Notes: generated from the letters alone by a model not told the origin. Shown: positions 25,841 through 45,117, counted from the stretch's first letter. The stretch: 64,000 nucleotides of DNA from Escherichia coli (GCF_041248615.1 NZ_CP158426.1); one strand, 5' to 3'. Numbers and translations: made by a program.

Positions 25841-25908
25841 GTTTTCGGCTATTAAAAAGGTCAAACCGGCTGAGTGAATTTTATCCAGTTACAAACAAGT
25901 ATTACCTC

Positions 25909-25947
25909 CAGTGTATTGGTAGCTGTTAAGCCAGGGGCGGTAGCATA
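25909..25947 (+). promoter_or_regulatory. JUMPStart element with ops site (RfaH recruitment) upstream of kpsM
   Basis: The sequence cagtgtattggtagctgttaagccaggggcggtagcata contains GGCGGTAG at 25936-25943, about 30 nt upstream of the kpsM ATG. Confidence 0.85.
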
Positions 25948-25975
25948 CCTGAAGAGAATAGGATCACATCACCAA

Positions 25976-26752
25976 ATGGCAAGAAGTGGATTTGAAGTCC
26001 AGAAAGTCACCGTAGAGGCATTATTTCTACGAGAAATACGAACACGCTTTGGTAAGTTCCGTCTGGGATATCTGTGGGCGATTCTCGAACCCTCTGCGCA
26101 TTTGCTGATACTGTTGGGCATTTTTGGTTACATTATGCACCGCACGATGCCAGACATCTCATTCCCGGTGTTTTTACTTAATGGCCTGATTCCCTTTTTT
26201 ATCTTTAGCAGTATCAGCAATCGTTCTGTAGGTGCTATTGAAGCGAATCAGGGGCTGTTTAATTATCGACCAGTAAAACCCATCGATACGATCATTGCGC
26301 GTGCATTGCTTGAGACACTGATTTACGTTGCTGTTTATATATTGCTTATGCTTATCGTCTGGATGGCAGGCGAATATTTCGAAATAACAAACTTTTTACA
26401 ACTTGTGCTCACCTGGAGTCTGCTGATCATTCTTTCATGTGGCGTCGGCTTAATATTCATGGTCGTTGGCAAAACCTTCCCTGAAATGCAAAAGGTCCTG
26501 CCGATACTGCTTAAGCCGCTGTATTTCATCTCCTGCATCATGTTCCCTTTACACTCGATTCCAAAGCAATACTGGTCATATCTACTCTGGAACCCATTAG
26601 TGCATGTCGTAGAGTTAAGCCGCGAGGCAGTTATGCCTGGCTATATCAGCGAAGGCGTGAGTCTGAACTACCTTGCAATGTTCACTCTGGTCACCCTGTT
26701 CATCGGTCTGGCGTTATACCGAACGCGTGAAGAGGCAATGCTGACATCATGA
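25976..26752 (+). CDS. kpsM: Capsule export ABC transporter permease KpsM (region 3)
   Basis: Translation reads MARSGFEVQKVTVEALFLREIRTRFGK..., 258 aa. The longer ORF-track start at 25874 covers the ops element and was rejected. Confidence 0.95.
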   Translation: MARSGFEVQKVTVEALFLREIRTRFGKFRLGYLWAILEPSAHLLILLGIFGYIMHRTMPDISFPVFLLNGLIPFFIFSSISNRSVGAIEANQGLFNYRPVKPIDTIIARALLETLIYVAVYILLMLIVWMAGEYFEITNFLQLVLTWSLLIILSCGVGLIFMVVGKTFPEMQKVLPILLKPLYFISCIMFPLHSIPKQYWSYLLWNPLVHVVELSREAVMPGYISEGVSLNYLAMFTLVTLFIGLALYRTREEAMLTS

Positions 26753-27426
26753 TTAAAATTGAAAATTTGACGAAGTCATATCGCACGCCAGCGGGTCGAC
26801 ATTATGTCTTTAAGAATTTAAATATTGAAATCCCTTCAGGAAAAAGTGTTGCCTTTATTGGTCGCAACGGAGCGGGTAAATCAACGTTACTGAGAATGAT
26901 TGGCGGCATTGACCGCCCCGACAGTGGAAAGATCATCACTAATAAAACAATATCATGGCCAGTCGGCCTCGCAGGTGGATTTCAGGGAAGTTTAACCGGA
27001 CGCGAAAACGTAAAATTTGTTGCCCGGTTATACGCGAAGCAAGAAGAACTAAAAGAGAAAATTGAGTTTGTCGAAGAATTTGCCGAACTCGGTAAGTACT
27101 TCGATATGCCGATTAAAACTTACTCATCTGGTATGCGATCGCGTTTAGGCTTTGGTTTAAGCATGGCATTTAAGTTTGATTATTATATCGTCGATGAAGT
27201 AACCGCAGTCGGTGATGCCAGGTTTAAAGAAAAATGCGCTCAATTGTTTAAAGAAAGGCATAAAGAGTCTAGTTTTTTAATGGTTTCACATAGTTTGAAT
27301 TCATTGAAAGAGTTTTGTGATGTGGCCATTGTGTTTAAGGATGATAATGCGGTTGGTTTTTATGAGGATGTTCATGAGGGGATAAAATCATACCAAATAA
27401 ATGAAAATACAACTATTAAGATTTAG
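26749..27426 (+). CDS. kpsT: Capsule export ABC transporter ATPase KpsT (region 3)
   Basis: 225 aa with Walker A GRNGAGKST, the signature YSSGMRSRL and Walker B YYIVDE. Confidence 0.95.
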   Translation: MIKIENLTKSYRTPAGRHYVFKNLNIEIPSGKSVAFIGRNGAGKSTLLRMIGGIDRPDSGKIITNKTISWPVGLAGGFQGSLTGRENVKFVARLYAKQEELKEKIEFVEEFAELGKYFDMPIKTYSSGMRSRLGFGLSMAFKFDYYIVDEVTAVGDARFKEKCAQLFKERHKESSFLMVSHSLNSLKEFCDVAIVFKDDNAVGFYEDVHEGIKSYQINENTTIKI

Positions 27427-27612
27427 GCCATTACGTGAAGATATAATTTACACTCCCCAAGTTAATACATATAAGTAATTATATTAATAAATATTTATAA
27501 AAGGCATCTAAAGAATAGATGCTTAGAGCCACTTAAACTGCTGTATTGTCTAAATGTAAGAAATAACGAAATGGGTTTTTGGTGATTACTGTACTCAAAA
27601 GGAGTCAAGAAT

Positions 27613-30600
27613 ATGAAATCAATATTGTATTATTTAGAGCCACGTACAGAATTAAATGACAAATTATTTCGCTATGCAACACTACGCTCTTATCTACTAC
27701 CTGAAATTGATGGCCTTAGGATAGCTGATAAGAGCCTCGATTTTAAAATGATCGTTTCTCGTACGATTTATAATAAAGCAAAACAAAATAATTTAAAAAT
27801 GGAGGGTATCGATTTTATAATTATTGATGAAGATGTATTTGAAAAGAACTCATATCTGAAGAATATTAATGTTAGTAATGAATTATATCATGGGAATTTA
27901 AATATAAAGGCTAATGAAGAACTAAAATCAATCATATCTGCTTGCCTTCCTGTTGATTATAAACCAGATATTATTATTTCATATGAAAGCCCAGCTCCAT
28001 TTTTTAAAGAGATATTTCCATCATCTTTACTTTTAAACGCTATGTTTGGAATTTTTTCAAGGGCACCATTTCCTGCATATGGGTTATTAGACCCATGTGG
28101 TTTGTATGAATATTCATATCAATATAAATATGCTGATAAAATTCGTGCTGAGGAGATTTCAGAAGAAGAAAAGGAAGTTATAAAATTACTCAGAAGACAA
28201 AGTTCAAGAGCACTTGCTGCTTATCATCCTCTCAAGAAATATATTTCATCATTATATGAAAAATATGATCGACTTGTTGTATTAGCATGTCAAGTGGATA
28301 ACTATTTTTCTTATAATAGTTGTACCAATTATCCATCACAATATGCGATGGTGGAAGATGTTCTTTCTCAAGTTCCATCAAATATTGGTGTTATAGTTAC
28401 AGAACATGGCTATAAAAGACAAATAAGTGACGAGCAAATTGAGTCTTTAAATGAAAAATACAGTAATTTTATATATTTTTCTAAAAAAGATGTATTCACA
28501 CCAAGTCAATTTATTCTTCCTTATGTAGATGGTGCTTTATCAGTCTCGTCATCGATTGGTTATCAGGCTGCTTTATGGCAGATTCCATATTTTGGTCTTG
28601 GAAAATCACAAGTCGATGTACTCTGTTCAAATACATCATTAATGAGCTTCGTTAATGATGTTGAAAAAGGCATAAAGATTGATCGTGATAATATTCTTTA
28701 TGTTTTACTTTCAAAAGTTCACTTATCACATAAAAATGATTTGTTTAATGGAAAATCTTATCTAAATAAGTTGAAGGATTTATTTAATAAGTTTACCTCT
28801 AATTGCGACGAATATGAGTATTTTAACACTAAAAAAAGTATTGATGAAGTTCGAAAAGATATCATCTGTGGCAACAGAGAATGGTTACTGAAAAAAAACT
28901 TTATTGACTCAAAATTAGTTCCTGAAGTAGACCATTTACGTGTTGCAATGTCGCATTCAAAAGCGATCTCTTATGATCTTTTTGATACTCTTGTTGAACG
29001 TGATTTTGTTGAACCTCATGAATTATTTAATCTAATTGAATCCCGTGTACGTAATGAGTTAAACAATAAAAACTTCCCTTTCTATTATGTAAGACGACAA
29101 GCCGAAATTGACTTGCGCAGAGAGACAAGAGGTGAGTTTGAAATTACTCTCGATGAAATTTACGAAAGATTTCCAAGATACTTTGATCTTACTTTAGAAC
29201 AACTAGAGAAGATAAAAAATATAGAAATAGATGCTGAAGTCGAACTCGTTCATCCGAAAAAAGAAATGGTTCGTGAATTTTATTTTTCTCAAATGATTTG
29301 TGAAAGTGTATCTATCATTACAGATATTTATCTTTCTCAGAATGTTATTGAGCGTATTTTACAAAAAGTAAAAATTAGTGGTTACAATAAATTATTGGTT
29401 TCAGCAGAAACTAAAACAAGAAAACATAACGGAACTATTTATCCTGAATATTTGAAATATATAAGAGATAATTTTGATATTAATGCAGGACAGGCTCTTC
29501 ATGTCGGTGATAATAAACAAGCTGATGGTGATATGGCTAAAAAACATGGCATAAAAACATATGTATTTCAAAAAGCGATTGATAATTACAAAAAATCTTT
29601 AATTGCTGATATTTTACGTTCCAGTATTAATCATCCAGGTATTTCGAGTTCTGTTATTAATGGTTTGTTTGCTAACAAATATCACGCAGGACACTGGTTT
29701 AAAATTAACAAGGAATCAATTTTTAATGCTGACGAATATAATTATGGCTATATGGCAATAGGGCCTCTTGTTGTTGGCTTTACTCAGTGGTTGTATCGGC
29801 GGGTTAATAAATTAGGTATCAAAAAATTATATTTCTTATCCCGCGATGGATGGATTCTTAAAAAAACATTCGATTATTTTTATCCTGAATCATCATCTGG
29901 CATCAAGACCGAATACCTGTACAGCTCTCGTCGAACTGCAATGGTAGCATCGTTAAGAAATATTGATGATATTATTGAAGTTGCCTCTCAAAACTTCAAT
30001 GCTAGAAAGCTAAGTGACTTTTTATCTACTCGTTTTGGGCTGGATGTGGATACTGTTAAAAAATCTGTTCTTGAAAAATATAATTACAAGCATGACACTA
30101 TTGTTTCTCCTTATTTTGAATTTGGAAAGCTGATTGGTTTTTTAAAAGATATTCATCATACAATATTGTCTAATGCAAAAAATGAACGTGAAAGCTATAT
30201 CGATTATTTACGAGAAACTGGATTTGAAAATGATTGCTTAAATGGCGGTGCTACTGTTGTTGATATTGGTTACAGTGGTTCCATGCAATATTATTTAAAA
30301 AAAATACTGCAATGCCCTTGTGTGAACGGATTTTATTTTTTAACACATCACCATAGTCGTGATTATTTTTCAAATGATCATTTTGAAGGTTTCTTGCAAA
30401 ATCTTGATGATCATAAGATCGCTTATAGACATGGATTAAATGATCATGTGTTTATTTTTGAAGCAGCATTAAGTTCCCCTGAAGGAAGTCTGATTAAAAT
30501 GGAAGGGAAAGGTCAAGAAAGAGAAATGATTTTTCTCGAGGCAGAAGAAGAGATTGTAAGAAAAAATGCTCTATTAGGAACACATCGTGGCGTAATGGAC

Positions 30601-31122
30601 TTTGTTCATGATATCAAAACTCGTTTTGGTTCTTACTTTAAATACATTGAATTTTCTCCTATTCTTTCTTCTCAACTTATTTTGAATTTTGCGAATAATC
30701 CCAACGGTATAGATGCAGGGATGTTTGCTTCTCATGAAGTCGAAAATGTTTTTGGTGGGGGGTCTGTATGCTTAATTTCGCCTTTACTAGATTGCTATAA
30801 GGACTCTAATGGCACCATTAACCCTAAAATTATCGATGAGTTATTAAAAGCATCTAAATGGAAGAGAGGTGCCAGTGCTTATTATAACTTAGTCAATGGA
30901 ACTCAACCGCGAGTTAATCCTGCTAAAATGCCAGCGCCATCTGTTAACCCAGTTGTTGTGAAGCAAACGCCACAAACTACTTATGCACATCCTTTAAAGA
31001 CAACTACGCAGCGTAAACTTGCTAAGTTAAAAAAAGACCCATATTTATTCTTTAATGATTCCCAAAAACCTCTTTTAAAAAGTTTACGATTGTTCTTCAA
31101 AAATACATCAAAGCTTAATTAA
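27613..31122 (+). CDS. Region 2 giant multidomain protein, putative capsule polymerase (KpsS/KpsC-like Capsule_synth-type domain, HAD-like domain, unassigned C-terminal domain, basic tail)
   Basis: 1169-aa ORF in very AT-rich DNA. Residues around 215-330 align by motif with the KpsS and KpsC of this same window (VLACQVDNYFSY vs VLQVYNDSQI / QVEDDASI; VIVTEHGYK vs VIKHHPMD; ALSVSSSIGYQAALWQIPYFGLG vs VVTINSTAGISALIHNKPLKVMG). HAD motif I (SYDLFDTLVERD) and motif IV (HVGDNKQADGDMAKKHGIKT) are present. Confidence 0.6.
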   Translation: MKSILYYLEPRTELNDKLFRYATLRSYLLPEIDGLRIADKSLDFKMIVSRTIYNKAKQNNLKMEGIDFIIIDEDVFEKNSYLKNINVSNELYHGNLNIKANEELKSIISACLPVDYKPDIIISYESPAPFFKEIFPSSLLLNAMFGIFSRAPFPAYGLLDPCGLYEYSYQYKYADKIRAEEISEEEKEVIKLLRRQSSRALAAYHPLKKYISSLYEKYDRLVVLACQVDNYFSYNSCTNYPSQYAMVEDVLSQVPSNIGVIVTEHGYKRQISDEQIESLNEKYSNFIYFSKKDVFTPSQFILPYVDGALSVSSSIGYQAALWQIPYFGLGKSQVDVLCSNTSLMSFVNDVEKGIKIDRDNILYVLLSKVHLSHKNDLFNGKSYLNKLKDLFNKFTSNCDEYEYFNTKKSIDEVRKDIICGNREWLLKKNFIDSKLVPEVDHLRVAMSHSKAISYDLFDTLVERDFVEPHELFNLIESRVRNELNNKNFPFYYVRRQAEIDLRRETRGEFEITLDEIYERFPRYFDLTLEQLEKIKNIEIDAEVELVHPKKEMVREFYFSQMICESVSIITDIYLSQNVIERILQKVKISGYNKLLVSAETKTRKHNGTIYPEYLKYIRDNFDINAGQALHVGDNKQADGDMAKKHGIKTYVFQKAIDNYKKSLIADILRSSINHPGISSSVINGLFANKYHAGHWFKINKESIFNADEYNYGYMAIGPLVVGFTQWLYRRVNKLGIKKLYFLSRDGWILKKTFDYFYPESSSGIKTEYLYSSRRTAMVASLRNIDDIIEVASQNFNARKLSDFLSTRFGLDVDTVKKSVLEKYNYKHDTIVSPYFEFGKLIGFLKDIHHTILSNAKNERESYIDYLRETGFENDCLNGGATVVDIGYSGSMQYYLKKILQCPCVNGFYFLTHHHSRDYFSNDHFEGFLQNLDDHKIAYRHGLNDHVFIFEAALSSPEGSLIKMEGKGQEREMIFLEAEEEIVRKNALLGTHRGVMDFVHDIKTRFGSYFKYIEFSPILSSQLILNFANNPNGIDAGMFASHEVENVFGGGSVCLISPLLDCYKDSNGTINPKIIDELLKASKWKRGASAYYNLVNGTQPRVNPAKMPAPSVNPVVVKQTPQTTYAHPLKTTTQRKLAKLKKDPYLFFNDSQKPLLKSLRLFFKNTSKLN

Positions 31123-31130
31123 TATAATGT

Positions 31131-31158
31131 GAGTCGCACTATGGTGTGACTCTTTTTT
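31131..31158 (+). terminator. Rho-independent terminator between the two region 2 genes
   Basis: A 9-bp stem GAGTCGCAC / GTGTGACTC (one G-U pair) with loop TATG is followed by TTTTTT. Confidence 0.7.
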
Positions 31159-31240
31159 ATATGTCAGTGATAGTTATTAATGAAATATTTAATGCGCGAA
31201 GGTGTACGATTTTTACAATATTTAGAGACTGGTGGGTCAA

Positions 31241-32230
31241 ATGAGTATTTCTTTGAAAAATATTGATTTTGCTAAAGGTCCTGTTGATTCCCTCCATCAT
31301 GATTATTACTTATGGCGAGGGAAGAACATTGAGGATAAAAGACTTTTTCTCGTTTTCTCATCTCGGGGAGCAGGTCCTGGAGAATTTAGTTTTTTCAAAA
31401 CTTTTGATGCGCTTAATGTAAATGTTTTGCATGTTACACCCTCTGATTTTTCATGGTACCAAAAAGGGTTAGTCGGTTTAGGGAGTGATTTGCCTTCTGC
31501 ATTTAAAGCCCTATCTGACCGAATAGATAATTTCTGTATTTATCATAAAATAAAACAAATTATCTGTGTAGGGGCTTCCATGGGAGGATATGGTGCTTTA
31601 ATTTATGGGGCTTTATCTAGTAGAAAAATAAAAACAACACTTATTCTTTTTGGCACCGAAACAATATTAAAACTTCCTTATTCTAAAAGTTCTGAGAGTG
31701 AATTTGATATTCTCAAAAAATTTAAAGATGTAAGGTTTCTAGATTATTCTGATCTTGATGTGAATATGATATTTGGTGAGTTTGATATTGTAGATACTTA
31801 TTGTGCTTTATCGATGCGACATGATCGAAATTTTTCATTTTTTTCATGCACTAGCGCCTCACATGTTGTTCCGGAATACTTAAATAGACAAATTGGAATT
31901 GTTAATTTTTTTACAGACTTCTTATCGGGTGGAAGATCTTTTATTGGAAGAGGCCACATTGCTTCTGAGCTTTATCCTGAGGATATTTCTCCTCTTCTGT
32001 TCTCGAAACAATTTACTGAGGAATACAATAATGCCCTCCTCTGTTGCTTGAAAAAATATCCTTCATTTGGGTTTGCATGGAATAGATTAGGCGTATATTT
32101 ACACAATATAGGAGATCTGGCTGGGTCTTTAGCAGCATTAAAAAGAGCATTTTTCATCAACCCTGATTATCCAAATACAATTGAGCATCTTAACTCGGTA
32201 AGAAATAAACTAAAAACTAAAAACTTTTAG
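31241..32230 (+). CDS. Region 2 alpha/beta-hydrolase-fold protein with C-terminal TPR-like repeats (possible capsule O-acyl/acetyl modifying enzyme)
   Basis: It has the nucleophile elbow VGASMGGYGAL, with later Asp (GEFDIVD) and His (SASHVVPE) in canonical Ser-Asp-His order. The C-terminus AWNRLGVYLHNIGDLAGSLAALKRAFFINPDYPN is TPR-like. The ATG at 31241 is preferred over the GTG at 31232 because a GGTGGG Shine-Dalgarno sequence lies just upstream. Confidence 0.55.
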   Translation: MSISLKNIDFAKGPVDSLHHDYYLWRGKNIEDKRLFLVFSSRGAGPGEFSFFKTFDALNVNVLHVTPSDFSWYQKGLVGLGSDLPSAFKALSDRIDNFCIYHKIKQIICVGASMGGYGALIYGALSSRKIKTTLILFGTETILKLPYSKSSESEFDILKKFKDVRFLDYSDLDVNMIFGEFDIVDTYCALSMRHDRNFSFFSCTSASHVVPEYLNRQIGIVNFFTDFLSGGRSFIGRGHIASELYPEDISPLLFSKQFTEEYNNALLCCLKKYPSFGFAWNRLGVYLHNIGDLAGSLAALKRAFFINPDYPNTIEHLNSVRNKLKTKNF

Positions 32231-32307: not shown

Positions 32308-33516
32308 TTATAATTTTTTTACTTTTATTTGTTTTCTTACTCTATCCCCATAATAAACCCCATTAACCTGCGTCTTCACCAATAAATACCCCCGAAACTT
32401 CTTAAACAGTTTCATATCCGGTTTAAAATCGGCCTGCCAGAACTGGTGCAAATGCCCTTGATACGTCAAGCCTTTGATGTCGTACAGGGCATTGCCCATC
32501 ACTTTGAGTGGTTTGTTGTGAATCAGCGCAGATATCCCCGCCGTACTGTTAATTGTCACCACCGCTTTTGCGTGGCGTAACAATTCCGGCATCGGGAGAT
32601 CGTGCACATAAATGACTCGTTCCCCTAAGCCATATTCCTTACTCAACCGCTTAATTAATGGTCGATAGAGTCTGTGACCACGATCCATTGGATGGTGCTT
32701 GATCACCAAATAACTTTCTTTCGGTGCTTTACGTGAAAATGAGTACATGACTTCATTAATATAGTCACGCACATCGTTATAATTGCTGTGGTTACGAATC
32801 TGGCTATCGTTATACACCTGCAAAACGGCAAGATAATAACGCTGATCCAGCTCATTCATTAACCTCGGCAATACCTTACGCTGTGTTACCTTGTAAAGTT
32901 GCTTGCGCCAGTATGCACGAACCCAGCAACGTGCTTCATACCAGGGGGAAAACGATTTATGGTGGCGGTAGCGAGGGAACTCATGGCGGTAATGCCAGCC
33001 CATCAGGTAATACCACATCGCATGACCTATACGTTTCATCGTTGAAGGTTTTAAGTTCTCAACGTGCGGCGCAGGCATATCTGGTAACTTACGATAAAAA
33101 TCCGGATCGCGCGGTAGCGATGAATATGCGTTTACTCCGCCTTCTTCAACGGTTATAAATTGCGGGCGTAAATATCCTTCTTCAAATGCCAGAAAGCGGA
33201 GCCCTTTCGACTTTGCCCAGCGTTTTGCTTCTTTATGCAATGGGCGACAGTCACCAAAACAGAGGATGGTATCAAAGTCATATTGCCGGTGGAGATCCCG
33301 TAACCATCCGGGGAACTCTTTCGGCGTTTGGTAGTAGGCCAGGTATTGTCGATGGCGGCAGTAAAAACGATCCCCACCGTTGAATACAACATTCACAGCG
33401 TTACGTCCTAATGACTCTAACCATTCGGCGACGTCATTGAAAAAAGGTCCCATCGGCCCCTGCAATAGCAGATATTTTTTACCGGATAATAAAACGGTTA
33501 GTGCATTACCTTGCAT
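32308..33516 (-). CDS. kpsS: Capsule beta-Kdo transferase KpsS (region 1)
   Basis: Translation reads MQGNALTVLLSGKKYLLLQGPMGPFFNDVAEWLE..., 402 aa, recognised as KpsS. Confidence 0.93.
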   Translation of the reverse strand: MQGNALTVLLSGKKYLLLQGPMGPFFNDVAEWLESLGRNAVNVVFNGGDRFYCRHRQYLAYYQTPKEFPGWLRDLHRQYDFDTILCFGDCRPLHKEAKRWAKSKGLRFLAFEEGYLRPQFITVEEGGVNAYSSLPRDPDFYRKLPDMPAPHVENLKPSTMKRIGHAMWYYLMGWHYRHEFPRYRHHKSFSPWYEARCWVRAYWRKQLYKVTQRKVLPRLMNELDQRYYLAVLQVYNDSQIRNHSNYNDVRDYINEVMYSFSRKAPKESYLVIKHHPMDRGHRLYRPLIKRLSKEYGLGERVIYVHDLPMPELLRHAKAVVTINSTAGISALIHNKPLKVMGNALYDIKGLTYQGHLHQFWQADFKPDMKLFKKFRGYLLVKTQVNGVYYGDRVRKQIKVKKL

Positions 33517-33550
33517 AAATAATTTGCGTAATAGTCAACTATGAAATTGT

Positions 33551-35578
33551 TTAGCCAAATCTGACCTTGCAGAACATAATTAATTTGCGGTAATAGCGTA
33601 TTACCCGTCCCGCTTTTTTTCGGGTAATAAACATCGGCTTACGCGGCGTCTGGATTAAATATTCCGCAGCTTCCTCAACCGTAATAGGCTGTAGCCGTGT
33701 TGGGTGAATATATGTTGGGTAAACAATCAACGCCTGATAGATCAAGTCTGCTATCGTTAATTTTTGCTCGCGGCGCGGGCAATGATGTTCATCAACGGTT
33801 AAACCCCAACCGGCATAGAAGGGCAGGCCGTAACAATGAACTTGCTTGCCATGTAATAACGCTTCAAACCCGGACAATGATGTCATGGTGTGCACTTCAT
33901 CTGCGCGCTGAATGCATTGAATAATATCGGCGCCCAGTGCCTGATAATCAGCGAGTTCAGCAGTCAGTTCTGCCGGAATATCGCCCTTGCGATTCCCCAC
34001 CAGTACATCCGGGTGCGGTTTATAAACAATGTAGGCGTGCGGATTGCGCTCGCGTACTGTGCGTAATAACTCAAGGTTGCTCTTAATCGAGACAGTGCCT
34101 GTTTTAATGGAGGCATCGTCCTCTACCTGACCCGGCACCAGGATAACTTTTTTATCTTTGGCTTCGGCTGGTAGAGAGAAATCGGCTCCCAGGTTGTACT
34201 TACTCAGTTTGCTTTCAACCAGTCGCTGGCGTAATTTTTCAGCTCGCATCTGCTGCGCCAGCGTTAACTGGCTGTGATTAAGCAGGACTTCCAGGTCGCT
34301 GGGGCGCGTGGCGTCATAGTAGATCCCGCGTTTATCCAGTACCAACGATAGCGGCGGCAGCAGGTCAGAGCCAAGTCCGGATGAACGCAGAAAACCATCT
34401 TCCATTCGCCATAACGGCAGTGATTTTTGTTGCGCTTCGGCTCGCCATTGCTGTTCTCCCTTTACACCCCATACCACGCAGGCGCTCGCCGCAGTACAGC
34501 GACGTGAAAAACTCAGCCGGTTTGTTGCCGTTTGCAAGAAAGGTTTCAGGATCGCTGACTTCCACAGCGTTAAGCCTGGCGCCCATAAATAACCATCACG
34601 CTGTTGCAGATGTCGACGTTGTAATTGCAGCCATTGCAGCACGGTAAATAGATCGCTTACTTCTCCCGTTTGCGGATCGATATAGCGACAGTAACGCAGG
34701 TATGCAGCGGCAAAAAGTTCCTCCAGCGTGGCAGAACCGCGTCGGGCAGATAACAAAGCGGACTGTGGATGACGATCGTCGGTTAAACCCCAACCTGCAT
34801 ACCAAGGCTGGCCGAAACATGTTACTGGTTTTCCTGCCAGCAAGGCTTCAAAGCCGTACTGGGAGGTCACGACGTAAACCTGGGAAACGTGTCGCAATAG
34901 CGACTGCGGGCTGACATTCTCGGCAATCAAACGTACTCGTTGCGTGGCACGCAGATCAGCGAAATAACCTGTTTTCTTTCCTTCCAGTACATCTGGGTGC
35001 ACCTTCACCCAAATTTCGGCTTGAGGATTTTCCGCCATCGCGGCTTCCAGCATGGCAGCAAACTCATGCGGGCCAGCATTGCCATACGTCACTGACATAT
35101 CATTAAATGTCTGATCGACAACCAGAACGATGTCTGCACGTTCTGACTCATCAGCCACAAACGCAGGTGCCAGGTTATATTTCGACAAATCTCCGGTCAC
35201 GATGGTGTGCATCGCTTCTCTGGCCTGGCTTATCAGAGCTGTATTTCCGGCTTTATCCTGTACCAGTTTCTCCAGTGCTGAAGGCTTGCTGGCATCGTAG
35301 TAAATGCCACAATCATCCACCACCAGAGAAAGCGGCGGCTCGCCATTGACGCCAAGATCCAGCGAACGCACAAATCCATCTTCCAGACGAATGACGGGTT
35401 TTCCCGCTGCTTTGGCGATGGCGACTGGTTTCGCCGCGCTGGGACGATGTCCCCACACGGCGATAGCATCAACTTCTTGCGGAACAGGGCGCAGCAGAGA
35501 AAGTTTCTGGCACGGTTGCGCCAGAAATTTCTCCAGATGCGGAATACGCCAGATGCCAGGCGAGTAAATGCCAATCAT
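33551..35578 (-). CDS. kpsC: Capsule beta-Kdo transferase KpsC (tandem Capsule_synth domains)
   Basis: 675 aa starting [19 protein letters not shown]..., with duplicated HPDV motifs. Confidence 0.95.
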
Positions 35579-36315
35579 GCGTTTTCAGCCAGTTCCTGTG
35601 CCATCAGGGCGCGCACTTTTTCCAGGCATGCTGGGGTGTCGACGCCCGGACCGGTTGCGGCAACCTCAAATGTGCGGATGTTGATCCCTGCGCTCATCAA
35701 CCGCAGCTGCTCCAGTGATTCTGCCTGCTCTGGCATGGACTCCGGTAACTGACTGTAGTTTTGCAGCACATCGCGACGATAAGCGTAAATACCAACGTGT
35801 TTCAGGTAGCGCGCTTTTTCAGCATTACGCGGATAGGGAATCGGCGAACGGCTGAAATAAAGCGCATCCTGGCGGGTATTTACCACCACTTTTACCGTGC
35901 TTGGCTCGGTCGCTTCTTCGGCAGAAATCGCGTGGCATAGCGTTGCCACTGGCAACGCGGGATCATCACGCATTCCTTGTAACAGCGTTTCTACATCCCG
36001 CGGGCGAATCATTGGTTCATCGCCCTGCAGGTTAATGTAGATATCTGCCTCGACTTTATGCATCACCTCGACCAGCCGATCGGTGCCGGATTCATGATCG
36101 TTGCGCGTCATGATGGCTTTCCCGCCAAACGCCTGCACGGCCTTTTCAACACGCGGGTCGTCTGTTGCCACCCAAACTTCCGCAACGCCCGCCACCTGTA
36201 ACGCACGCTCGTAAACATGCTGGATCATCGGTTTACCAACAATATCGAGCAGTGGCTTACCCGGCAGGCGCGAGGAGCCATAGCGAGCCGGAATGACAAT
36301 AACTGCTTTGCTCAT
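35575..36315 (-). CDS. kpsU: CMP-Kdo synthetase KpsU
   Basis: 246 aa starting [25 protein letters not shown], overlapping the kpsC start. Confidence 0.95.
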
Positions 36316-36324
36316 TTCAACTCC

Positions 36325-38001
36325 TTACAAAGACAGAATCACTTTTGCACCCACCGCCAACTGGTAAAGGATGGTGGAAATACCGCGAGTAACTTCAATG
36401 TTTTTCGATTCATATTTCGGCAGAACCATAATCTCATCGCCCGGTTTGAGTGAATCCACATCTTCTGCGTTGACGGCTGCACCGTTCTGACGAATGACGA
36501 TAATTCTGGCGTTACCCGATTTCTGCGTCAGGCCACCACATTTCTCGATGTAATCCTCGGTGGTCATACCCTTCTGCCAGCTCACCGCGTTCGGGAACAG
36601 CACTTCGCCATGAACCATAACCAGCGATGTTTTCTCCGGAATATTGATGACGTCGCCATCTTCAAGCAGAACAGAATCAATATTGGATTCGTTGAGGATC
36701 ACTTCACCTTTCGGAACAACGGTGCGTGCTTTCGCCACAAAGCGGCTGATCAGTTGTGCTTCCTGCATTCGCAGGCTGGCTTCTTCTTTGGTGGATGACT
36801 GGGCAGAAAGTGATGCTTCCTCCAGCTTTTGCAGCGAGAGATTCAGCATCTCTTTCTGACGCTGAGCCACTGATGGGCGATAAAGCTGAACTGCGTTCAT
36901 CTGCGACATGCTGTTCGGGCGGACTTTTTCCAGAACCGCACGCATAGTGGAACCATAAGGCAGTACCATGGCATGTTCACCGGAGTGTGCGCCTTCAACC
37001 CGCACCTGAATGGTGCCGGCATAGCGGTCAGTGCTCACGATTAAGGTATCGCCATTTTGCAACATACGGCCTGGCGCAGAACTGATCGGATAGTATTCGC
37101 TGCGTTTTTGCAGCCCCTGTTTACGCATAATCGTAATGTGAGTCGCGCCAGGCTTAGGGCGCGCCCAGCTCAACGCTTCCGTTACGGGAATGCTGCTTTC
37201 GCGGAACTCAAAGTCGTAGCTGTTAAAGACATCGCCCTGAACGCTGAAAGTATGCTGACGCGGCCCGACGATGATGGTGTCACCATCGGCGAACTGCGAA
37301 AGCCCCAGTTTGCCGTTCAGCAGGAAGTCGTACAGGTTGACGTTGGAGCGCACGCGGTTACCGCGCTTGACCACAATATCAACGTAACTTCCGCGCTCTG
37401 GATCAACGCCGCCAGCCTTGATCAGATAATTGAGTAACGAATCAGACGTCACACCGCCATACAGACCAGGATTACGCACAAATCCGGTCACGTACACTTT
37501 TACTGGCTGCGCCTGTAATAAGGAGGCGTAGACGTTGACGTTGGACTGGTATACTTCCTTCACTTTGGATGTGACCAGGGCATTTAGCTGACTATTACTG
37601 ACGCCAGCAACTTTCACCGGACCAACGTTCGGCAGGAAAATATTACCTTTGGGATCAACCTGTAACGCACCATCAAAGGTGAACGCACCCCACAAGCGAA
37701 CCTGAATGCTATCACCCGGATTCAGAATATAGTCAGGGTTGAATCCTACCGTCGCACCGCTATCTGCGCTGGTGCCGTTGAAAAGTTGAGCACCAAACAT
37801 ACGGCTCATTACCACCGGCGGTGCGGGCGGCGGGGTATTGTCGAAGCCGCTCATGTTTTGCGTATCCGACTGTTGCCCGTTCAGAATACCGGTAAGCGGC
37901 GCGGCTCCTGTAAGGTTTGGGTCGGCGTTAATATCAATGGCCGCGCTGGCCTGCGCCGCGTGACAGGCGGCAATCAGTAAAATTGATTTAAATAATTTCA
38001 T
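36325..38001 (-). CDS. kpsD: Capsule outer-membrane/periplasmic export protein KpsD (OPX family)
   Basis: 558 aa starting MKLFKSILLIAACHAAQASA (signal peptide), recognised as KpsD. Confidence 0.95.
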   Translation of the reverse strand: MKLFKSILLIAACHAAQASAAIDINADPNLTGAAPLTGILNGQQSDTQNMSGFDNTPPPAPPVVMSRMFGAQLFNGTSADSGATVGFNPDYILNPGDSIQVRLWGAFTFDGALQVDPKGNIFLPNVGPVKVAGVSNSQLNALVTSKVKEVYQSNVNVYASLLQAQPVKVYVTGFVRNPGLYGGVTSDSLLNYLIKAGGVDPERGSYVDIVVKRGNRVRSNVNLYDFLLNGKLGLSQFADGDTIIVGPRQHTFSVQGDVFNSYDFEFRESSIPVTEALSWARPKPGATHITIMRKQGLQKRSEYYPISSAPGRMLQNGDTLIVSTDRYAGTIQVRVEGAHSGEHAMVLPYGSTMRAVLEKVRPNSMSQMNAVQLYRPSVAQRQKEMLNLSLQKLEEASLSAQSSTKEEASLRMQEAQLISRFVAKARTVVPKGEVILNESNIDSVLLEDGDVINIPEKTSLVMVHGEVLFPNAVSWQKGMTTEDYIEKCGGLTQKSGNARIIVIRQNGAAVNAEDVDSLKPGDEIMVLPKYESKNIEVTRGISTILYQLAVGAKVILSL

Positions 38002-38024
38002 CACAAACTCATTCAGCGACAGCG

Positions 38025-39173
38025 TTAGTCTCGGTGATCTTCAATAACAGCCAGCAACAGTTTCAGGGTGCCGAATAGCAGGCAGCACACCAGTAACCAG
38101 CAGGCGATCAAATAAGGGATATTTGGAAAAGACGATTCCTGCGGCAACTGTGGCGAACTGATCACTGACAGCACCTTGAGCTTACGAGCCGCTTCTACAC
38201 GGGTCTTTTCAATGGAGGTCAGGGTCAGTTTGTACAGCTCGGTGTTGAACTCTACTTTTGATTTGATTTCTTCAAAATCCACCGCCATACGGTTTAGCTT
38301 GTCACCCTGCGGCGCTGTGATTTTGCTTTTTTCTTCGTCAATTTGTGCCTGCAATGACTGAATCGCATTACGCGCACTCACAACTTGCGGGGCGTCTTCA
38401 CGCAGATACGTCAGCAAGTTCCGCAGGTCCGCTTCCATCTGGATCTTCTGGCCCATCAGCGTATTGACTAACGTGCTCGCCGCCTGTGCCTGTGCCTGTG
38501 GATCCAGAACGTTGTTGTTGTCCTGATAAGAGAGCAATTCCGCTTTGCTGGCGTCCAGACGCTGGCGTGCCTTTTCCATCTCCGTTTCTGCAAAGGCAAG
38601 CTGGTCACGCGCGATGCGATGTGACATCTCATTGATAAAGCGCTCTGACTCTTTCAGCACGGTCTGGTTAAACTTAAGCGCAAACTCCGGGCTAAAGCCC
38701 TGCGTCTGAATATTCAGTAATCCGGTTTTATCGTCATACGAGACGTTGATACGGTCCTTGTAGTACTTCAGGAAGCCTTCTGCAGTTTCATCCTTGCTAA
38801 GATGATTAAGAAAATCGAGCCCGCTGTGGCTAAACGCTTCACGAAAATTTAGTTGCTTATCCAGTGCCGCCAGCATATCCGGCGAGTTGATGTACTCTTT
38901 CAGATACAACGCATCTTCTGCGGAACTGGGGTTAGAGGCACCCAGAAGCAGACCAAAATTCAGGCTGCCGCTGTTTAAATCATCCGAGCGTTTAATGGCG
39001 ACTTTCGACTCGCTCATATAGCGAGGCTGGCTGAAGATAGCCAGATAGATCAGCAGCACCGCCATCGGTGCCAGAATGATGATTTTCGCCAGGTGTTTTT
39101 GGATATCTGCCAGTGAGATGGCAGACAGACGAGCACGCATCCAGGATACGGCAGACTTCACTTTTATCAACAT
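38025..39173 (-). CDS. kpsE: Capsule export inner-membrane PCP-3 protein KpsE
   Basis: 382 aa with N- and C-terminal hydrophobic segments and coiled-coil-like middle, recognised as KpsE. Confidence 0.95.
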   Translation of the reverse strand: MLIKVKSAVSWMRARLSAISLADIQKHLAKIIILAPMAVLLIYLAIFSQPRYMSESKVAIKRSDDLNSGSLNFGLLLGASNPSSAEDALYLKEYINSPDMLAALDKQLNFREAFSHSGLDFLNHLSKDETAEGFLKYYKDRINVSYDDKTGLLNIQTQGFSPEFALKFNQTVLKESERFINEMSHRIARDQLAFAETEMEKARQRLDASKAELLSYQDNNNVLDPQAQAQAASTLVNTLMGQKIQMEADLRNLLTYLREDAPQVVSARNAIQSLQAQIDEEKSKITAPQGDKLNRMAVDFEEIKSKVEFNTELYKLTLTSIEKTRVEAARKLKVLSVISSPQLPQESSFPNIPYLIACWLLVCCLLFGTLKLLLAVIEDHRD

Positions 39174-39244
39174 GTAACGATTATCAAAGTTTCAGTGGGG
39201 CGCAAACTCAATGAGAGACTAACCTCTCGCACCCCGTTGCTTAA

Positions 39245-40228
39245 TTAGTCGAAAATGCGCACAAGGCCAGTGACTTTATTTGCCTTGTTGGTCACCAATA
39301 ACGTTGAGACGCGGTGCTTTTGCATTTTTTCTTCCGCTTCAATGATCATGGTGTCTTCCGGTAGCGTCAGCGGTTCACGTGTCATCATCTGCGCAGCCGT
39401 GGCGGATGTCAGAGAATCCTCTTTTTCCATAAAGCGACGCAGGTCACCGTCGGTGATAATGCCCGCTAGCCCACCTTCTGCGTCTTCTACCATCACCATT
39501 CCCTGGCATCCGCTGGTGATACGTTGAATCACGGTTTTAAATGACGCATCCAGCTGTACCGCAGGAACATCATGCTGCATGACATCAGCAACGCGGGTCA
39601 GCAGGCGACGACCTAATGAACCGCCCGGGTGATAGCGCGCAAAATCATTCGGCATAAATTTGCGTTGGTGGATCATGGCAATCGCCAGCGCATCGCCGAT
39701 CGCCATCGTCAGCGTGGTAGACGTTGTTGGTGCAAGATTATTCGGGCAGGTTTCATTCGCCATGTGGAGTTCCAGCACGGCATCAGCATTTTTCGCCAGC
39801 GTGGAATTTCCATTATTGGTAATGGCGATAATTCGGTTGCCGAAATTTTTCAGTGAAGGAACTAGCTTGAGGATTTCATCCGTTTCACCGCTGGCAGAAA
39901 TAAGGATCAGAAGATCGTAAGGCGTAATCATGCCCAGATCGCCATGGAAAGCTTCTGCAGGATGAATAAAGAAACTAGGCGTACCCGTAGAGGCCAGCGT
40001 CGCTGACATTTTACGACCGACATGCCCTGATTTACCCATTCCCGAAAGAATAACGTGCCCTTTACAGTTCATTATCAAATTAAGGACACGCTGGTACTGC
40101 CCGGAATCCAGTTGTTTAGACAAGTTTTGTAATGCTGCGCCTTGTTCTGCCAGAGTCTGGCGAACAGAGGTAATTAGATATGGATCGATAGTACTGCTCT
40201 GGTCATCAGGTAAATGTCTTTCAGACAT
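39245..40228 (-). CDS. kpsF: Arabinose-5-phosphate isomerase KpsF
   Basis: Translation reads MSERHLPDDQSSTIDPYL..., 327 aa, with SIS plus tandem CBS domains. The ORF-track start at 40264 was trimmed to the internal ATG. Confidence 0.93.
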   Translation of the reverse strand: MSERHLPDDQSSTIDPYLITSVRQTLAEQGAALQNLSKQLDSGQYQRVLNLIMNCKGHVILSGMGKSGHVGRKMSATLASTGTPSFFIHPAEAFHGDLGMITPYDLLILISASGETDEILKLVPSLKNFGNRIIAITNNGNSTLAKNADAVLELHMANETCPNNLAPTTSTTLTMAIGDALAIAMIHQRKFMPNDFARYHPGGSLGRRLLTRVADVMQHDVPAVQLDASFKTVIQRITSGCQGMVMVEDAEGGLAGIITDGDLRRFMEKEDSLTSATAAQMMTREPLTLPEDTMIIEAEEKMQKHRVSTLLVTNKANKVTGLVRIFD

Positions 40229-40880
40229 ATCAGCTCCTTTGCACGGAAATAATGCCACAGTCACAACAAACCCGAACCCACTATAATTTATTTATGCTAA
40301 ATCAATGGGTTGTAACAAAATTTTTAATGAATATAAAACCATGGTCAGTCCATGCTTATATGCAGGACTTATCACCTTCTTATTAAGTCGCAATGTCTCA
40401 TGGAGGTGCGAAGATGCTGCAATATTACAGGCGAGAAGGGGAACCAAATTTTGCCCACCTATTTAACACACCCCTACATTATGAACAAGGAATTTAGGAT
40501 TTTTATCATTTATTAAAATGTTTCCTACTTGACTATTAAACCAAAAAACAATTTATCAATTGATTATTTCCTTGTAAAAAAAGAACGTATGACCATGTTA
40601 TTAATAAATAAAACACGTAAATAATGGTGATGTTGTTTTGTGATTAACTATTTAAGAGTGGCATAATAAACAAGTTGACAATTTCTATGTAAAGAAGAAG
40701 AAAATAATAAAATTTTAGCGGTGACTATTGAATGATATGATAGTTGTGGTGTTGATTATTTCTGGTAATGAATGCGGAATTAAATCTGGCCGGATTGTAT
40801 TTTTGCTATATCTATTTTTCAGGAGATTATTATTAAATATAAAAATAACAATGGTGATTATCTCCGGTTGACCTGGAGTC
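40229..40880 (-). promoter_or_regulatory. AT-rich kps region 1 promoter region upstream of kpsF
   Basis: This is a very AT-rich noncoding stretch in the position of the described region 1 promoter. The exact -10/-35 elements and regulator sites were not mapped here. Confidence 0.5.
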
Positions 40881-41026
40881 ACGTATGCCAGCGAGTGCTT
40901 TCTTCCGGGCCTTCCTTCACTTCAGAGAAAAAGAGGCAATCATCAGGCTCTTTTTGAGTCATATGCGCCGATAATCAACTGTCTTGAACGTAAAAATTAT
41001 GGAGCAACATGATGCTACGATTCATT

Positions 41027-41231
41027 TCACTCTTCGTTCTTTCTGAGCATTGCGTTCAGGATGGTCAGCAATTTACGCATACTGTCAACCAGCGCCACTT
41101 TTTTGGTTTTTCCGGCTGCTGACAGATGCATGTAAAATGCCTTTATCACCGGATTAAACCAGGTTACCACAAGCGCTGCCATGTGCAGGGCTGCTCTTGC
41201 CTCCGTACGCGCACTGGCGTCGTTCGGCCAG
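41027..41231 (-). pseudogene. C-terminal remnant of an IS110-family transposase
   Basis: The minus-strand translation WPNDASARTEARAALHMAALVVTWFNPVIKAFYMHLSAAGKTKKVALVDSMRKLLTILNAMLRKNEE-stop matches the conserved IS110-family C-terminus. No upstream part is present. Confidence 0.75.
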
Positions 41232-41364
41232 CAGATATGTGTGGGATAACAGGGATGTTATGTGAACTGAACTGTGTTTTGTTAGCGGGGGGATGTTTAT
41301 TGATGATTCGGGAGTGTTTAAGACCTGATGGCGTTATGCTCCCAAGTTTATTTTATATAAAGAT

Positions 41365-41396
41365 CCAAAAGCAAAAACCCGCCTTGTGGGCGGGTT
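41365..41396 (-). terminator. Rho-independent terminator downstream of the DUF4942 gene
   Basis: The stem AACCCGCC / GGCGGGTT has a short loop. On the minus strand it is followed by TTTGCTTTTGG. Confidence 0.6.
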
Positions 41397-41407
41397 CTTT
41401 AGAATAG

Positions 41408-41429
41408 TGGTGCCGGAATCGGAATCGAA
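41408..41429 (-). repeat. Degenerate copy of the tRNA-Phe 3-prime end (island att-type direct repeat)
   Basis: The minus strand reads TTCGATTCCGATTCCGGCACCA. The E. coli tRNA-Phe 3-prime end, as I recall it, is TTCGATTCCGAGTCCGGGCACCA. That is one substitution and one missing G. Confidence 0.65.
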
Positions 41430-41539
41430 AATTTCTTTTATCATATTGATATTAATATAATTTGTTTGGTTTGATTAAAAATGTACCCTCAATTATACCC
41501 GCAGTCCCTTTTGATATCGAAAGGGAATCACACTCGGGA

Positions 41540-42382
41540 TCAGGCTGAGAGCACAGAAGGAAAGTACCTGGCTATTATATCGTTAATTCTGTCAATCAGT
41601 TCCAGCCTTTTGAAAGTGATGTGTGCAGATCCCTTCTTAAAGTATTTAATGATGAACATCTCGTCTTCATAGCGCTCTTTACCCTGAACGGACTGGATGT
41701 GACCATCCAGACGAATAGTGATGTTTTCCCGGTTGTCGGGGATCGGTTTGCCGCTGAACAGATGTAGCATTCTTTCCAGGTCGACGAGTCGGTCAGTCTG
41801 TTGCCCGGTGATAAGATGAAACCCCCACCGGTCCCACCTCACCAGGTTGTTGACGATAATTTTACTGCCAAATTTGCAGGGGCAATTGGTTTTGTAATTC
41901 CAGCTCAGTCCCCTGAAGACGTTGATCACCCCTCGCTCAAACACCTCATCCTTATTCTGGTGTAGTTGTTCAAATGTGATCAGAATGTTCGCTTCACTGA
42001 TTTCCGGAAAATTATCGTACTCCAGTGACCGGTACCATGTATCACGGGCCTGTGCATCCATTAAGGAAAGCATCCCTGAACGTTGCATCAGGTCACGCCA
42101 GATTTCGCGATCGAGATTGCGTGTGATGGCTTTCATTGCGGTTTCCGGTTTCTCCATCAGCCAGCAGCCGCAGCGAAAATCCTGTTTCATGGCCCAGCCC
42201 GGGGCGGCTTTACCGCCAATACTTTCTGTCATTGCTGATATTTCAGCCAGTTGCCGGATAAGTGTGTCGATTTGCAGCAGTGTACTCTTTCGTACAGCCA
42301 GAATGTGGCGGATATTGGTTGAGCAGATAACGTCCGTATGCCCGGTGACCACTTCCGGACGGGAGATTGTGATGTCTGACAT
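41540..42382 (-). CDS. DUF4942-family protein typical of CP4-like islands
   Basis: 280-aa ORF (MSDITISRPEVVTGHTDV...), in the usual position distal to the cbtA-like toxin. Confidence 0.7.
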   Translation of the reverse strand: MSDITISRPEVVTGHTDVICSTNIRHILAVRKSTLLQIDTLIRQLAEISAMTESIGGKAAPGWAMKQDFRCGCWLMEKPETAMKAITRNLDREIWRDLMQRSGMLSLMDAQARDTWYRSLEYDNFPEISEANILITFEQLHQNKDEVFERGVINVFRGLSWNYKTNCPCKFGSKIIVNNLVRWDRWGFHLITGQQTDRLVDLERMLHLFSGKPIPDNRENITIRLDGHIQSVQGKERYEDEMFIIKYFKKGSAHITFKRLELIDRINDIIARYFPSVLSA

Positions 42383-42466
42383 TATCGGTTTCCCTTTTGG
42401 TTTATAAACGAAAACGCCAGCCCTGTTCAGGCTGACGTCAGTGGAATGAAGTATGGTGAGTGATAT

Positions 42467-43263: not shown

Positions 43264-43309
43264 CTTAAGTTCTCTGTAACTGGTAGTGCTAAAGGTGAGA
43301 TATTCGGGG

Positions 43310-43684: not shown

Positions 43685-43759
43685 GATAAAATCCTCACAG
43701 AAAATCGGTTAAGAATGGTCCGGTAGTGGCGATAATTCTGCTCATCAGAATGCCCTGAC

Positions 43760-43981: not shown

Positions 43982-44049
43982 GGTGTGATACCTCTGAAGA
44001 CAGAAGATAAAAGTGAAAACAGGTGTGATGTGGTGGTGACGGTGACGGG

Positions 44050-44526: not shown

Positions 44527-44541
44527 TGTTCCTGCCCCCTT

Positions 44542-45027: not shown

Positions 45028-45117
45028 GATATTATTCCTTATAAAAAGCAAATGAATGAAGAAGGCTCGGGGGCAGGGACAGACGTGAGTCAGGACGGCG
45101 CTTTCAGGTAAACGGTA

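Follow-up and report, generated by a model that had tools for sequence, protein, structure and literature searches.

A predicted single-chain Rib-Kdo polymerase in an Escherichia coli K107 capsule locus, with a Kdo-transferase-like module that appears to lack the canonical Asp

The polymerase gene and its locus

The large gene in region 2 of an Escherichia coli group 2 capsule (kps) locus is analysed here; it lies within a 64,000-nucleotide stretch of NZ_CP158426.1 (assembly GCF_041248615.1), and this whole stretch is termed the window, with positions counted from its first letter. The gene is a complete open reading frame (ORF) at 27613..31122 on the + strand, which encodes 1169 residues from an ATG start and has the Shine-Dalgarno sequence AAGGAG 8 nt 5' of that ATG. 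A first-pass annotation of this DNA, made from the sequence alone, had called the same ORF, and the call is a real one: RefSeq places WP_000836184.1 at identical coordinates, under the label 'hypothetical protein'. Its product (kTYPr K107_10) is interpreted here as a capsule polymerase that would build a polymer of ribose (Rib) and 3-deoxy-D-manno-2-octulosonic acid (Kdo).

Region 2 consists of two genes only, the polymerase gene being the sole glycosyltransferase gene among them, and the locus runs in the order kpsMT, polymerase, α/β-hydrolase/tetratricopeptide repeat (TPR) gene, kpsS-C-U-D-E-F. Directly 5' of the polymerase gene, on the same strand, lie the region 3 genes kpsM-kpsT (25874..27426, +), which encode the ABC exporter; the second region 2 gene (K107_9, termed here ORF2; 31241..32230, +) encodes 329 residues with an α/β-hydrolase and a C-terminal TPR; and region 1 (kpsS, kpsC, kpsU--a kdsB paralogue--kpsD, kpsE and kpsF; 32308..40264, - strand) supplies the poly-Kdo glycolipid primer, CMP-Kdo and export. 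On this segment of the E. coli chromosome the locus adjoins the gsp type II secretion genes.

The 2026 kTYPr catalogue, in its supplementary InterPro table, gives K107_10 as 1169 aa with a HAD domain at 450-655/661, and K107_9 as 329 aa with α/β-hydrolase and TPR (PMC13171606). Both region 2 ORFs match these entries in length and domain coordinates, within a G2A kps locus; by these matches, rather than by reference sequence, the locus is of kTYPr type K107. In the kTYPr account K107 is a newly defined type, belongs to the Kdo-Ribf set (where Ribf denotes ribofuranose) and is positively associated with invasive disease (PMC13171606).

Modules of the predicted polymerase

A homologue search found about 50 full-length relatives sharing 25-75% identity, from Yersinia, Aeromonas, Vibrio, Cupriavidus, Pantoea, Rahnella, Chromobacterium, Psychrobacter and metagenomes; their alignment was fed to AlphaFold2, and residue invariance was counted in 49 homologues. 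The resulting model has a mean predicted local distance difference test (pLDDT) score of 90.4 and a predicted template modelling (pTM) score of 0.85, with disorder only at residues 1099-1128, a predicted linker (30907..30996, +; pLDDT <50). Pfam and NCBIfam scans of the whole polymerase gave sub-threshold HAD matches only. Fold and profile searches divide the chain into three enzyme modules and a tail: a predicted Kdo-transferase-like module of modified GT-B fold (Capsule_synth/GT99-like; residues 1-436; 27613..28920, +), a HAD-type phosphoribosyl phosphatase (PRP) module (CrpP/PRP-like; residues ~440-660; 28930..29592, +) and a glycan phosphoribosyltransferase (gPRT) module dependent on phosphoribosyl pyrophosphate (PRPP) (CriT/gPRT-like; residues ~661-1095; 29593..30897, +). 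The same domain order recurs in full-length homologues across Proteobacteria. The fold matches, given as E-value and score, were the WbbB GT99 β-Kdo transferase domain (8e-9; 23.8, with 334 residues aligned), Bcs3 (1.6e-26; 19.0) and the Thermobacillus composti polysaccharide ribofuranosyltransferase 7SHG (Foldseek E 5e-20; 18.2), the remaining ones being, by score, HAD phosphatases (~17), KrkA (9YFX; 16.1) and KpsC (15.7 / 14.8).

Kelly et al. are said to have described, in 2022, dual-domain polysaccharide ribofuranosyltransferases, among them the T. composti enzyme and Klebsiella O-antigen enzymes (cited in PMC12887879 and PMC13171606). The T. composti 7SHG protein has the same HAD + gPRT pair; dual-domain enzymes of this kind, however, stand alone and add a single ribose, whereas here the pair is fused to a second glycosyltransferase, as a polymerase. 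Bcs3 of Haemophilus influenzae type b comprises CroT (1-373), the HAD phosphatase CrpP (374-591), CriT (592-1036), an SH3b domain and C-terminal amphipathic helices; CriT is a PRPP-dependent ribose-5-phosphate transferase, CrpP is a proven ribose-5-phosphate phosphatase, the chemistry of both has been shown in vitro, and D386 (CrpP), D680 and E818 (CriT) are essential (PMC10299916).

A phmmer search of all Protein Data Bank (PDB) sequences with the polymerase matched Bcs3 only (E 3.9e-28, residues 424-786), and in the alignment D455 corresponds to D386 and R744-D745, within YFLSRDG, to D680. The profile of residues 700-1095 matched Bcs3 at E 2.5e-17, with D884 opposite E818, and 7SHG at E 2.7e-26, through a PRPP-loop-like motif in which avvDiGYsGsmQ of the profile is aligned with HIVDVGWKGTIQ (VDIGYSGSMQ here, VDVGWKGTIQ in T. 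composti); a single-sequence PDB search with residues 780-1100 gave no match. D455, S597, K604, D633, D638, R744, D884, G886 and Q892 are invariant in the 49 homologues. The polymerase has, then, a CriT/7SHG-homologous phosphoribosyltransferase-like domain with both catalytic acids and the PRPP-loop motif, and adjoining it a HAD-fold phosphatase with the motif I Asp nucleophile (D455) and motifs II-IV. Because the homologues have proven activity and the catalytic residues are conserved, the ribose-transfer and dephosphorylation steps are strongly supported; by this analogy there is strong support for residues ~661-1095 being a PRPP-dependent ribofuranosyl-5-phosphate transferase. The first-pass annotation had recognised the HAD domain, whose quoted motifs (DLFDTL at 455-460 and GDNKQADGD at 632-640) are in place and whose catalytic residues and homology to CrpP bear the assignment out. 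It had left residues 700-1085 unassigned: the motifs it quoted from there, LYFLSRDGW (739-747) and VVDIGYSGSMQ (882-892), are real, but the region can be named, and these motifs are its catalytic ones.

The likeness to Bcs3 thus covers homologous CrpP and CriT modules (D386/D455, D680/D745 and E818/D884) and C-terminal amphipathic helices in both proteins. The two differ in the N-module, which in Bcs3 is a TagF-like ribitol-phosphate transferase rather than Kdo-transferase-like; moreover, no SH3b-like β-domain is evident in the K107 polymerase, and its predicted product is not a phosphodiester polymer. An SH3b polymer-binding domain after the ribosyltransferase, as in Bcs3, was considered and found unsupported, the model having two short strands only (residues 1042-1053). 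HAD motif I (28975-28992, residues 455-460) reads D-x-F-D-T: the general acid/base site (Asp+2) is Phe, and +3 is Asp. D455, F457, D458 and T459 do not vary within the family, and Bcs3 CrpP has the same variant (FDIFDT), unlike canonical DxDxT phosphatases.

The N-terminal module shows, in the model, a modified GT-B fold whose N-terminal Rossmann domain is reduced, and the view that its fold is that of Kdo transferases is supported. Its profile matches the C-module of the window's KpsC in hmmsearch and in hhalign (probability 80.6%, E 1.3e-5), and the window's KpsS in hhalign (probability 60%, E 8.5e-5). The alignments with KpsC QVEDD and KpsS QVYND set the register of Q227-V-D-N-Y231 (28291..28305, +), the counterpart of the QxxxD box, in which Tyr231 would occupy the nucleophilic-Asp position of the retaining β-Kdo transferases. 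V262-T-E-H265-G (28396..28410, +) is the counterpart of the (K/R)xHP CMP-phosphate motif, with His265 aligned to the His of KpsS KHHP and with Gly in place of Pro. S312-S313-S314 (28546..28554, +; S312 and S313 invariant) forms the putative nucleotide-phosphate-binding Ser motif, and S312-S314, G316 and A319-L321 align on the S/T-x-x-G-x-x-A-L segment of KpsS and KpsC. Finally, Y124-E125-S126 (27982..27990, +) is a 'YE' motif, with E125 present in 45/49 homologues, that contains a candidate general base; the likeness of E125 to KrkA Glu102 and KpsS1 Glu132 would be one of motif and secondary-structure position, not of alignment.

The KpsS/KpsC motif alignment from which the first-pass annotation proposed a β-Kdo-transferase-like fold was correct in placing Q227 on the QxxxD Gln, H265 on the (K/R)xHP His and the S/T-x-x-G-x-x-A-L segment, and the motifs concerned lie where they were quoted (CQVDNY at 226-231, VTEHG at 262-266 and SVSSSIGYQAAL at 310-321). 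The description is sound where the fold is concerned but does not safely extend to stereochemistry, given Tyr231 at the nucleophilic-Asp position. Likewise, the register of the Gln in its Q-V-x-D/N box was right, but the acidic residue of that box is D229, which at +2 lies outside the nucleophile position and which the family does not conserve. In WbbB (GT99) and KpsC/KpsS (GT107; PDB 5FA0, 8CSB, 6MGB and 6MGD for these enzymes) the nucleophile is Asp where the K107 polymerase has Tyr, and the HP motif has Pro where it has Gly; no counterpart of the WbbB Glu158-type base was assigned with confidence. The module is, moreover, part of a heteropolymerase here, as opposed to a chain terminator (WbbB) or linker synthase (KpsC/KpsS).

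KrkA of E. coli K13 polymerises Rib-Kdo in vitro by iterative addition of the two sugars, with CMP-Kdo and PRPP as donors; family GT140 is founded on its N-terminal module, in which Ser271/Ser272 bind the CMP phosphate (Govind et al. 2026, PMC12887879). KrkA (K13/K20/K23; GT140 + gPRT/PRP; PDB 9YFX-9YFZ) has Q189xxxD193, with the Asp as nucleophile, as against Q227xxxY231 here, and its N-module is 356 aa long as against ~436 aa. Neither the protein, in phmmer, nor the family profile of the N-module gave a sequence match to KrkA 9YFX, which places the module outside GT140, whereas the KrkA-class control K104_9 matches 9YFX at E 3.7e-76 and carries QTLTD. BLASTP aligns the window polymerase with K104_9 over residues 439-1158 only (E 8e-44), and hhalign of the N-module with the KrkA class reaches 23% probability in the Ser motif alone, residues 312-314 being the sole stretch that also aligns with GT140.

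The C-terminal tail (residues 1129-1169; 30997..31119, +) consists of basic amphipathic helices, predicted at 1131-1162 in the AlphaFold2 model, with a net charge of +9 and a hydrophobic moment of 0.5-0.57, that is, moderately amphipathic. The segment quoted in the first-pass annotation, RKLAKLKKDPYLFFNDS, is found at residues 1134-1150 (31012-31062) and contains the motif K-L-x-x-D-P-x-x-F-F-x-D-S, which is common to the polymerase and the C-terminus of KrkA-class K104_9. The corresponding region had to be removed to solubilise KrkA (PMC12887879); by analogy the tail is a probable membrane-association element, in line with the membrane helix first suggested. The motif, common to both polymerase classes despite their unrelated N-modules, may be a docking or membrane element.

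A separate Kdo-module family and its capsule loci

A profile search of 1.84 billion representative proteins, clustered at 50% identity, returned this N-domain in 1200 clusters at E <=1e-3, of which 577 reached E <=1e-30; an earlier, word-indexed homologue search with the N-domain profile had found 7 proteins only, and the exhaustive representative search was used instead. Members of this family of at least 577 clusters are mostly fused to ribofuranosyltransferases; many are 1100-1200 aa long, and there are also stand-alone forms of ~400 aa and other fusions of up to 1984 aa. Residues were counted in 236 retrieved members aligned to the domain hidden Markov model (HMM). Gln occurs at position 227 in 218/219, Arg at 150 in 213, Asp at 160 in 196, Thr at 263 in 196, Asp at 306 in 208, Ser at 312 and 313 in 210 and 214, respectively, and Gln at 318 in 203; D359 is a further conserved acid. 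Position 231, by contrast with the Gln of the same box, varies (Y 166, H 18, Q 14, F 9, C 3) but is never Asp in the ~217 members aligned there; the family thus keeps the Gln of the QxxxD box and not its otherwise invariant, adduct-forming Asp. D229 (box +2) is replaced by Ser in most of the wider family, position 265 is His in 133, Tyr in 75 and Asp in 11, and position 125 is Glu in 148 and Leu, Met or Val in ~30. As read from these alignments, the scaffold of an active site suited to a CMP-ulosonic acid donor is kept while the Asp of covalent catalysis is absent family-wide, and the N-module belongs to a large separate family that is distinct from the GT140 of KrkA and lacks the Asp of the retaining β-Kdo transferases.

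Searches for a K16 polymerase by cluster names and by the context of a metagenomic homologue were unsuccessful; that homologue's DNA, used as a low-stringency blastn seed against E. coli genomes, succeeded and retrieved a related gene from 18 complete ones. The GF60 locus (L005; polymerase gene at NZ_CP172185.1 896881-900294) reads kpsMT, a 1137-aa 'HAD-IA family hydrolase' (WP_021564636.1), a 385-aa TPR protein and kpsS. WP_021564636.1 has the length of kTYPr K16_8 (from NZ_NNWH01000001.1) and is 29% identical to the window polymerase over residues 5-1158 (E 4e-128; the published value is 28.3%), and its TPR neighbour is 25% identical to ORF2 (24.8% published for K16_7/K107_9); GF60 therefore carries the probable K16 locus. 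The K16 repeat is reported as Ribf-Ribf-Kdo and as containing α-Kdop (PMC13171606). The N-module of the probable K16 polymerase scores 379 bits against the family HMM and has QIDNY, and that of the K141 polymerase (WP_103216026.1) scores 398 bits and has QVDNY, whereas K104_9 (NZ_CP007392.1) and a 1099-aa polymerase (NZ_CP097170.1) are GT140-class, with QTLTD and QTLED, and score <10 bits.

The Rib-Kdo polymerases of E. coli thus have two classes of N-terminal Kdo module without detectable mutual sequence similarity: a GT140/KrkA-like QxxxD class, for K13/K20/K23 (β-Kdop), found at L002:9757-13068 and L008:4949-8248; and a Capsule_synth-related QxxxY class, for K107, probable K16 and K141, found at window 27613-28920, L005:6001-9414 and L009:5665-9141. 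The probable K16 and K141 polymerases are full-length homologues of the same N-class, at 29-32% identity; since identity is only ~30%, their linkage specificity probably differs from that of K107. Region 2 of the K16-like locus likewise has two genes, one of them the α/β-hydrolase/TPR partner, whereas the gene beside the K141 polymerase is unrelated. The K141 locus (L009; NZ_CP026202.1 3408052-3422844) is heavily invaded by insertion sequences, with ISKpn26 between kpsT and the polymerase gene, ISEc33 twice and ISSpu7; its kpsC is apparently truncated, so the strain may not express this capsule.

ORF2 has an invariant triad, Ser113 (G-x-S113-x-G), Asp185 and His208. It was considered as a capsule O-acetyltransferase of the CsaC/OatC type; the triad is present, yet in Foldseek its model (pLDDT 84) matches generic α/β-hydrolases only. 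ORF2 may modify the polymer, as an O-acyltransferase or esterase, or may serve as an assembly factor. It has homologues next to the probable K16 polymerase (L005:9604-10761) and in the K24 locus (L010:4602-5759; 26.6% identity, E 5e-19), both of which are loci of capsules with reported α-Kdo.

In Cupriavidus taiwanensis and Vibrio hyugaensis, polymerase homologues lie in kps-like loci with kpsMT, kpsE, kpsD, kpsC, kpsS, kpsF and kdsA, the V. hyugaensis locus having also kdsB and a small HAD gene that is possibly kdsC; these polymerase loci contain no other sugar-nucleotide genes. That the homologous loci hold Kdo-pathway sugar genes only supports CMP-Kdo and housekeeping PRPP as the only donors. 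The gene adjoining the polymerase homologue encodes 312-323 aa in both genera; the Cupriavidus neighbour matches an ORF2 homologue (P0243) by length and replicon, and the Vibrio neighbour is a weak TPR match. ORF2, as a neighbour in other genera also, is a conserved partner of the polymerase.

Of 5426 complete E. coli genomes, 21 carry the polymerase gene, O25b:H4-ST131 (sequence type 131) strains among them, and its nucleotide identity is >=99.7% in every case; searching at low stringency turned up no more distant allele in E. coli. K107 strains include NRZ14408 (NZ_LT599825.1) and ST131 strain 2822 (NZ_CP103742.1). The G+C content of region 2 (window 27000-32000) is 30-34%, compared with 50-57% in the flanking gsp and region 1 genes. 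Low G+C and near-identity in 21 genomes fit a single recent acquisition that spread among lineages including ST131. An ops/JUMPstart core element, GGCGGTAG, lies at 25936..25943 (+), 33 nt 5' of the RefSeq kpsM start at 25976; this start is preferred because the longest ORF call (GTG, 25874) would put the element inside the gene. The motif has 2 matches in the window against 1.2 expected, so that its position matters rather than its count. In group 2 kps loci, ops elements mediate RfaH-dependent read-through of the region 3 transcript into region 2. Past kpsF, at 40265-45100, an identical RefSeq locus annotation lists an IS110-family transposase fragment and DUF4942, DUF957 and CbtA-family toxin genes; there are no tRNA genes anywhere within the window.

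Proposed mechanism and its alternatives

The reading proposed here, to which a probability of about 0.8 is given, is that the gene encodes the polymerase of group 2 capsule type K107, with three catalytic modules on one chain and a Rib-Kdo product; what the analysis shows is homology, fold, conservation of catalytic residues and gene context, while activities, donors and product are those expected from characterised homologues. The three modules would act in turn at the non-reducing end of the growing chain. The CriT-like module would transfer ribofuranose-5-phosphate from PRPP to a Kdo hydroxyl of the chain, giving chain-Kdo-β-Ribf-5-P (the β-Ribf product being expected because PRPP is α); the HAD module would strip the 5-phosphate by means of D455; and the N-terminal module would add the next Kdo from CMP-β-Kdo to a ribofuranose hydroxyl. 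Iterated on the product of KpsS/KpsC, a poly-β-Kdo-phosphatidylglycerol primer, these steps would yield the Rib-Kdo polymer, for export by KpsMT-KpsE-KpsD, while the basic amphipathic C-terminal helices would hold the enzyme at the inner membrane. Transfer of a phosphorylated ribose from PRPP followed by dephosphorylation, toward a Rib-Kdo type polymer, had been hypothesised in the first-pass annotation and is supported by analogy, the same chemistry having been shown for KrkA (PMC12887879) and Bcs3 (PMC10299916). Observations that could have told against that hypothesis did not arise in the computational check: the N-terminal fold is not an unrelated one, the HAD domain has its catalytic residues, and the polymerase loci hold Kdo-pathway sugar genes only. 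For the Kdo-addition step, support comes from the fold, from distant homology, from the conservation of donor-binding residues and from what the locus contains.

How the N-module would add Kdo is a closer question. That it does without the Asp-adduct double displacement of WbbB, KpsC and KrkA, and instead inverts to give α-Kdo, is judged slightly better than an even bet; direct displacement is favoured because the Asp is absent family-wide and because the probable K16 enzyme is a member of the family. For the fuller proposition--that this is an uncharacterised glycosyltransferase family of GT99/GT107 fold in which Asp has given way to Tyr, that it consists of inverting α-Kdo transferases, and that K107 is an α-Kdo/β-Ribf capsule--the odds are put at even. 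K24, which is also reported to contain α-Kdo, was considered as a user of this N-domain family and is not one, its candidate enzyme being a GT29-like protein; the α-Kdo there would come from an inverting-family enzyme, a result that speaks neither for nor against inversion here.

Several points weigh against these interpretations and are gathered here. The N-domain of the window protein matches nothing in Pfam Capsule_synth (PF05159) even at E <=1, so that the homology, seen in 16/30 homologous N-domains at E <=0.1 (best 8e-9), is transitive only; its profile has no meaningful match among PDB sequences (KpsC at E 3, the rest noise); and, no solved structure being reached by sequence, the active-site register depends on remote alignments (probability 60-81%) and the fold match. 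Neither His265 nor Glu125 occurs throughout the family. Retaining sialidases are known to use Tyr as a nucleophile, and loss of the Asp is by itself no proof of inversion. The identification of the GF60 locus as K16 is indirect because it draws on agreement with the kTYPr tables in a length (1137 aa) and a pair of identity values, the K16 α-anomer goes back to a 1990 structure of which the kTYPr account rechecked composition only, and, as far as that account was drawn on here, it gives no structure for the K107 polysaccharide (PMC13171606).

The sialidase precedent leads to a serious alternative, less probable than inversion, in which architecture and Rib-Kdo product are the same but the N-module is a retaining β-Kdo transferase with another nucleophile, either Tyr231, in a Tyr/Glu pair like that of sialidases and trans-sialidases, or D229. 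Neither residue, however, is universally conserved: ~20% of aligned members have His, Gln, Phe or Cys in place of Tyr231, and D229 is mostly Ser in the wider family. Moreover, the Asp is kept in all four characterised retaining families, and the probable K16 enzyme, as a member of this family, must make α-Kdo. The absence of that canonical nucleophile, together with the lack of a direct Pfam or PDB sequence match for the window N-domain, could also be read as a sign that the module adds no repeat-unit Kdo at all, but either transfers another CMP-activated ulosonic acid or is a non-catalytic acceptor-binding or scaffold domain, with a polymer that is ribose-only or completed elsewhere; for K16 the kTYPr account itself invoked extra or bifunctional activities (PMC13171606). 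This is improbable: at least 12 near-invariant positions in more than 200 members, among them the Gln that binds the carboxylate and the two Ser that bind the phosphate, point to a live active site, the loci encode the Kdo pathway only, and E. coli has no further CMP-ulosonic acid pathway except where neu-type genes occur, of which the window has none. More improbable still is that the gene is an inactive relic or mis-annotated fusion whose locus makes no capsule, as its 'hypothetical protein' label and the insertion sequence (IS) fragments just outside the locus might suggest; the reading frame is intact and nearly identical in 21 complete genomes, its Shine-Dalgarno sequence is good, all catalytic residues are kept, full-length homologues of the same order occur across Proteobacteria, and kTYPr associates K107 with invasive disease.

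Much of this finding is already known, in that single-chain Rib-Kdo polymerases using PRPP and CMP-Kdo are a characterised enzyme class and the locus is catalogued as K107; the remaining novelty is a distinct, uncharacterised Kdo-module family without the canonical nucleophile. A sister family without the Asp would mean either that this fold has switched between retaining and inverting chemistry or that it uses a sialidase-like Tyr nucleophile. If the inverting interpretation is true, it supplies the inverting enzyme, so far 'missing', that K16 must have according to the kTYPr authors, and K107 is a new α-Kdo/β-Ribf antigen in some ST131 and other extraintestinal pathogenic E. coli (ExPEC) lineages; the Kdo-module family is thus a lead on α-Kdo capsule synthesis. 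Given the occurrence of K107 in O25b:H4-ST131 genomes and its association with invasive disease, knowledge of the polymer and its synthesis by one enzyme would aid glycoconjugate-vaccine and serotyping work.

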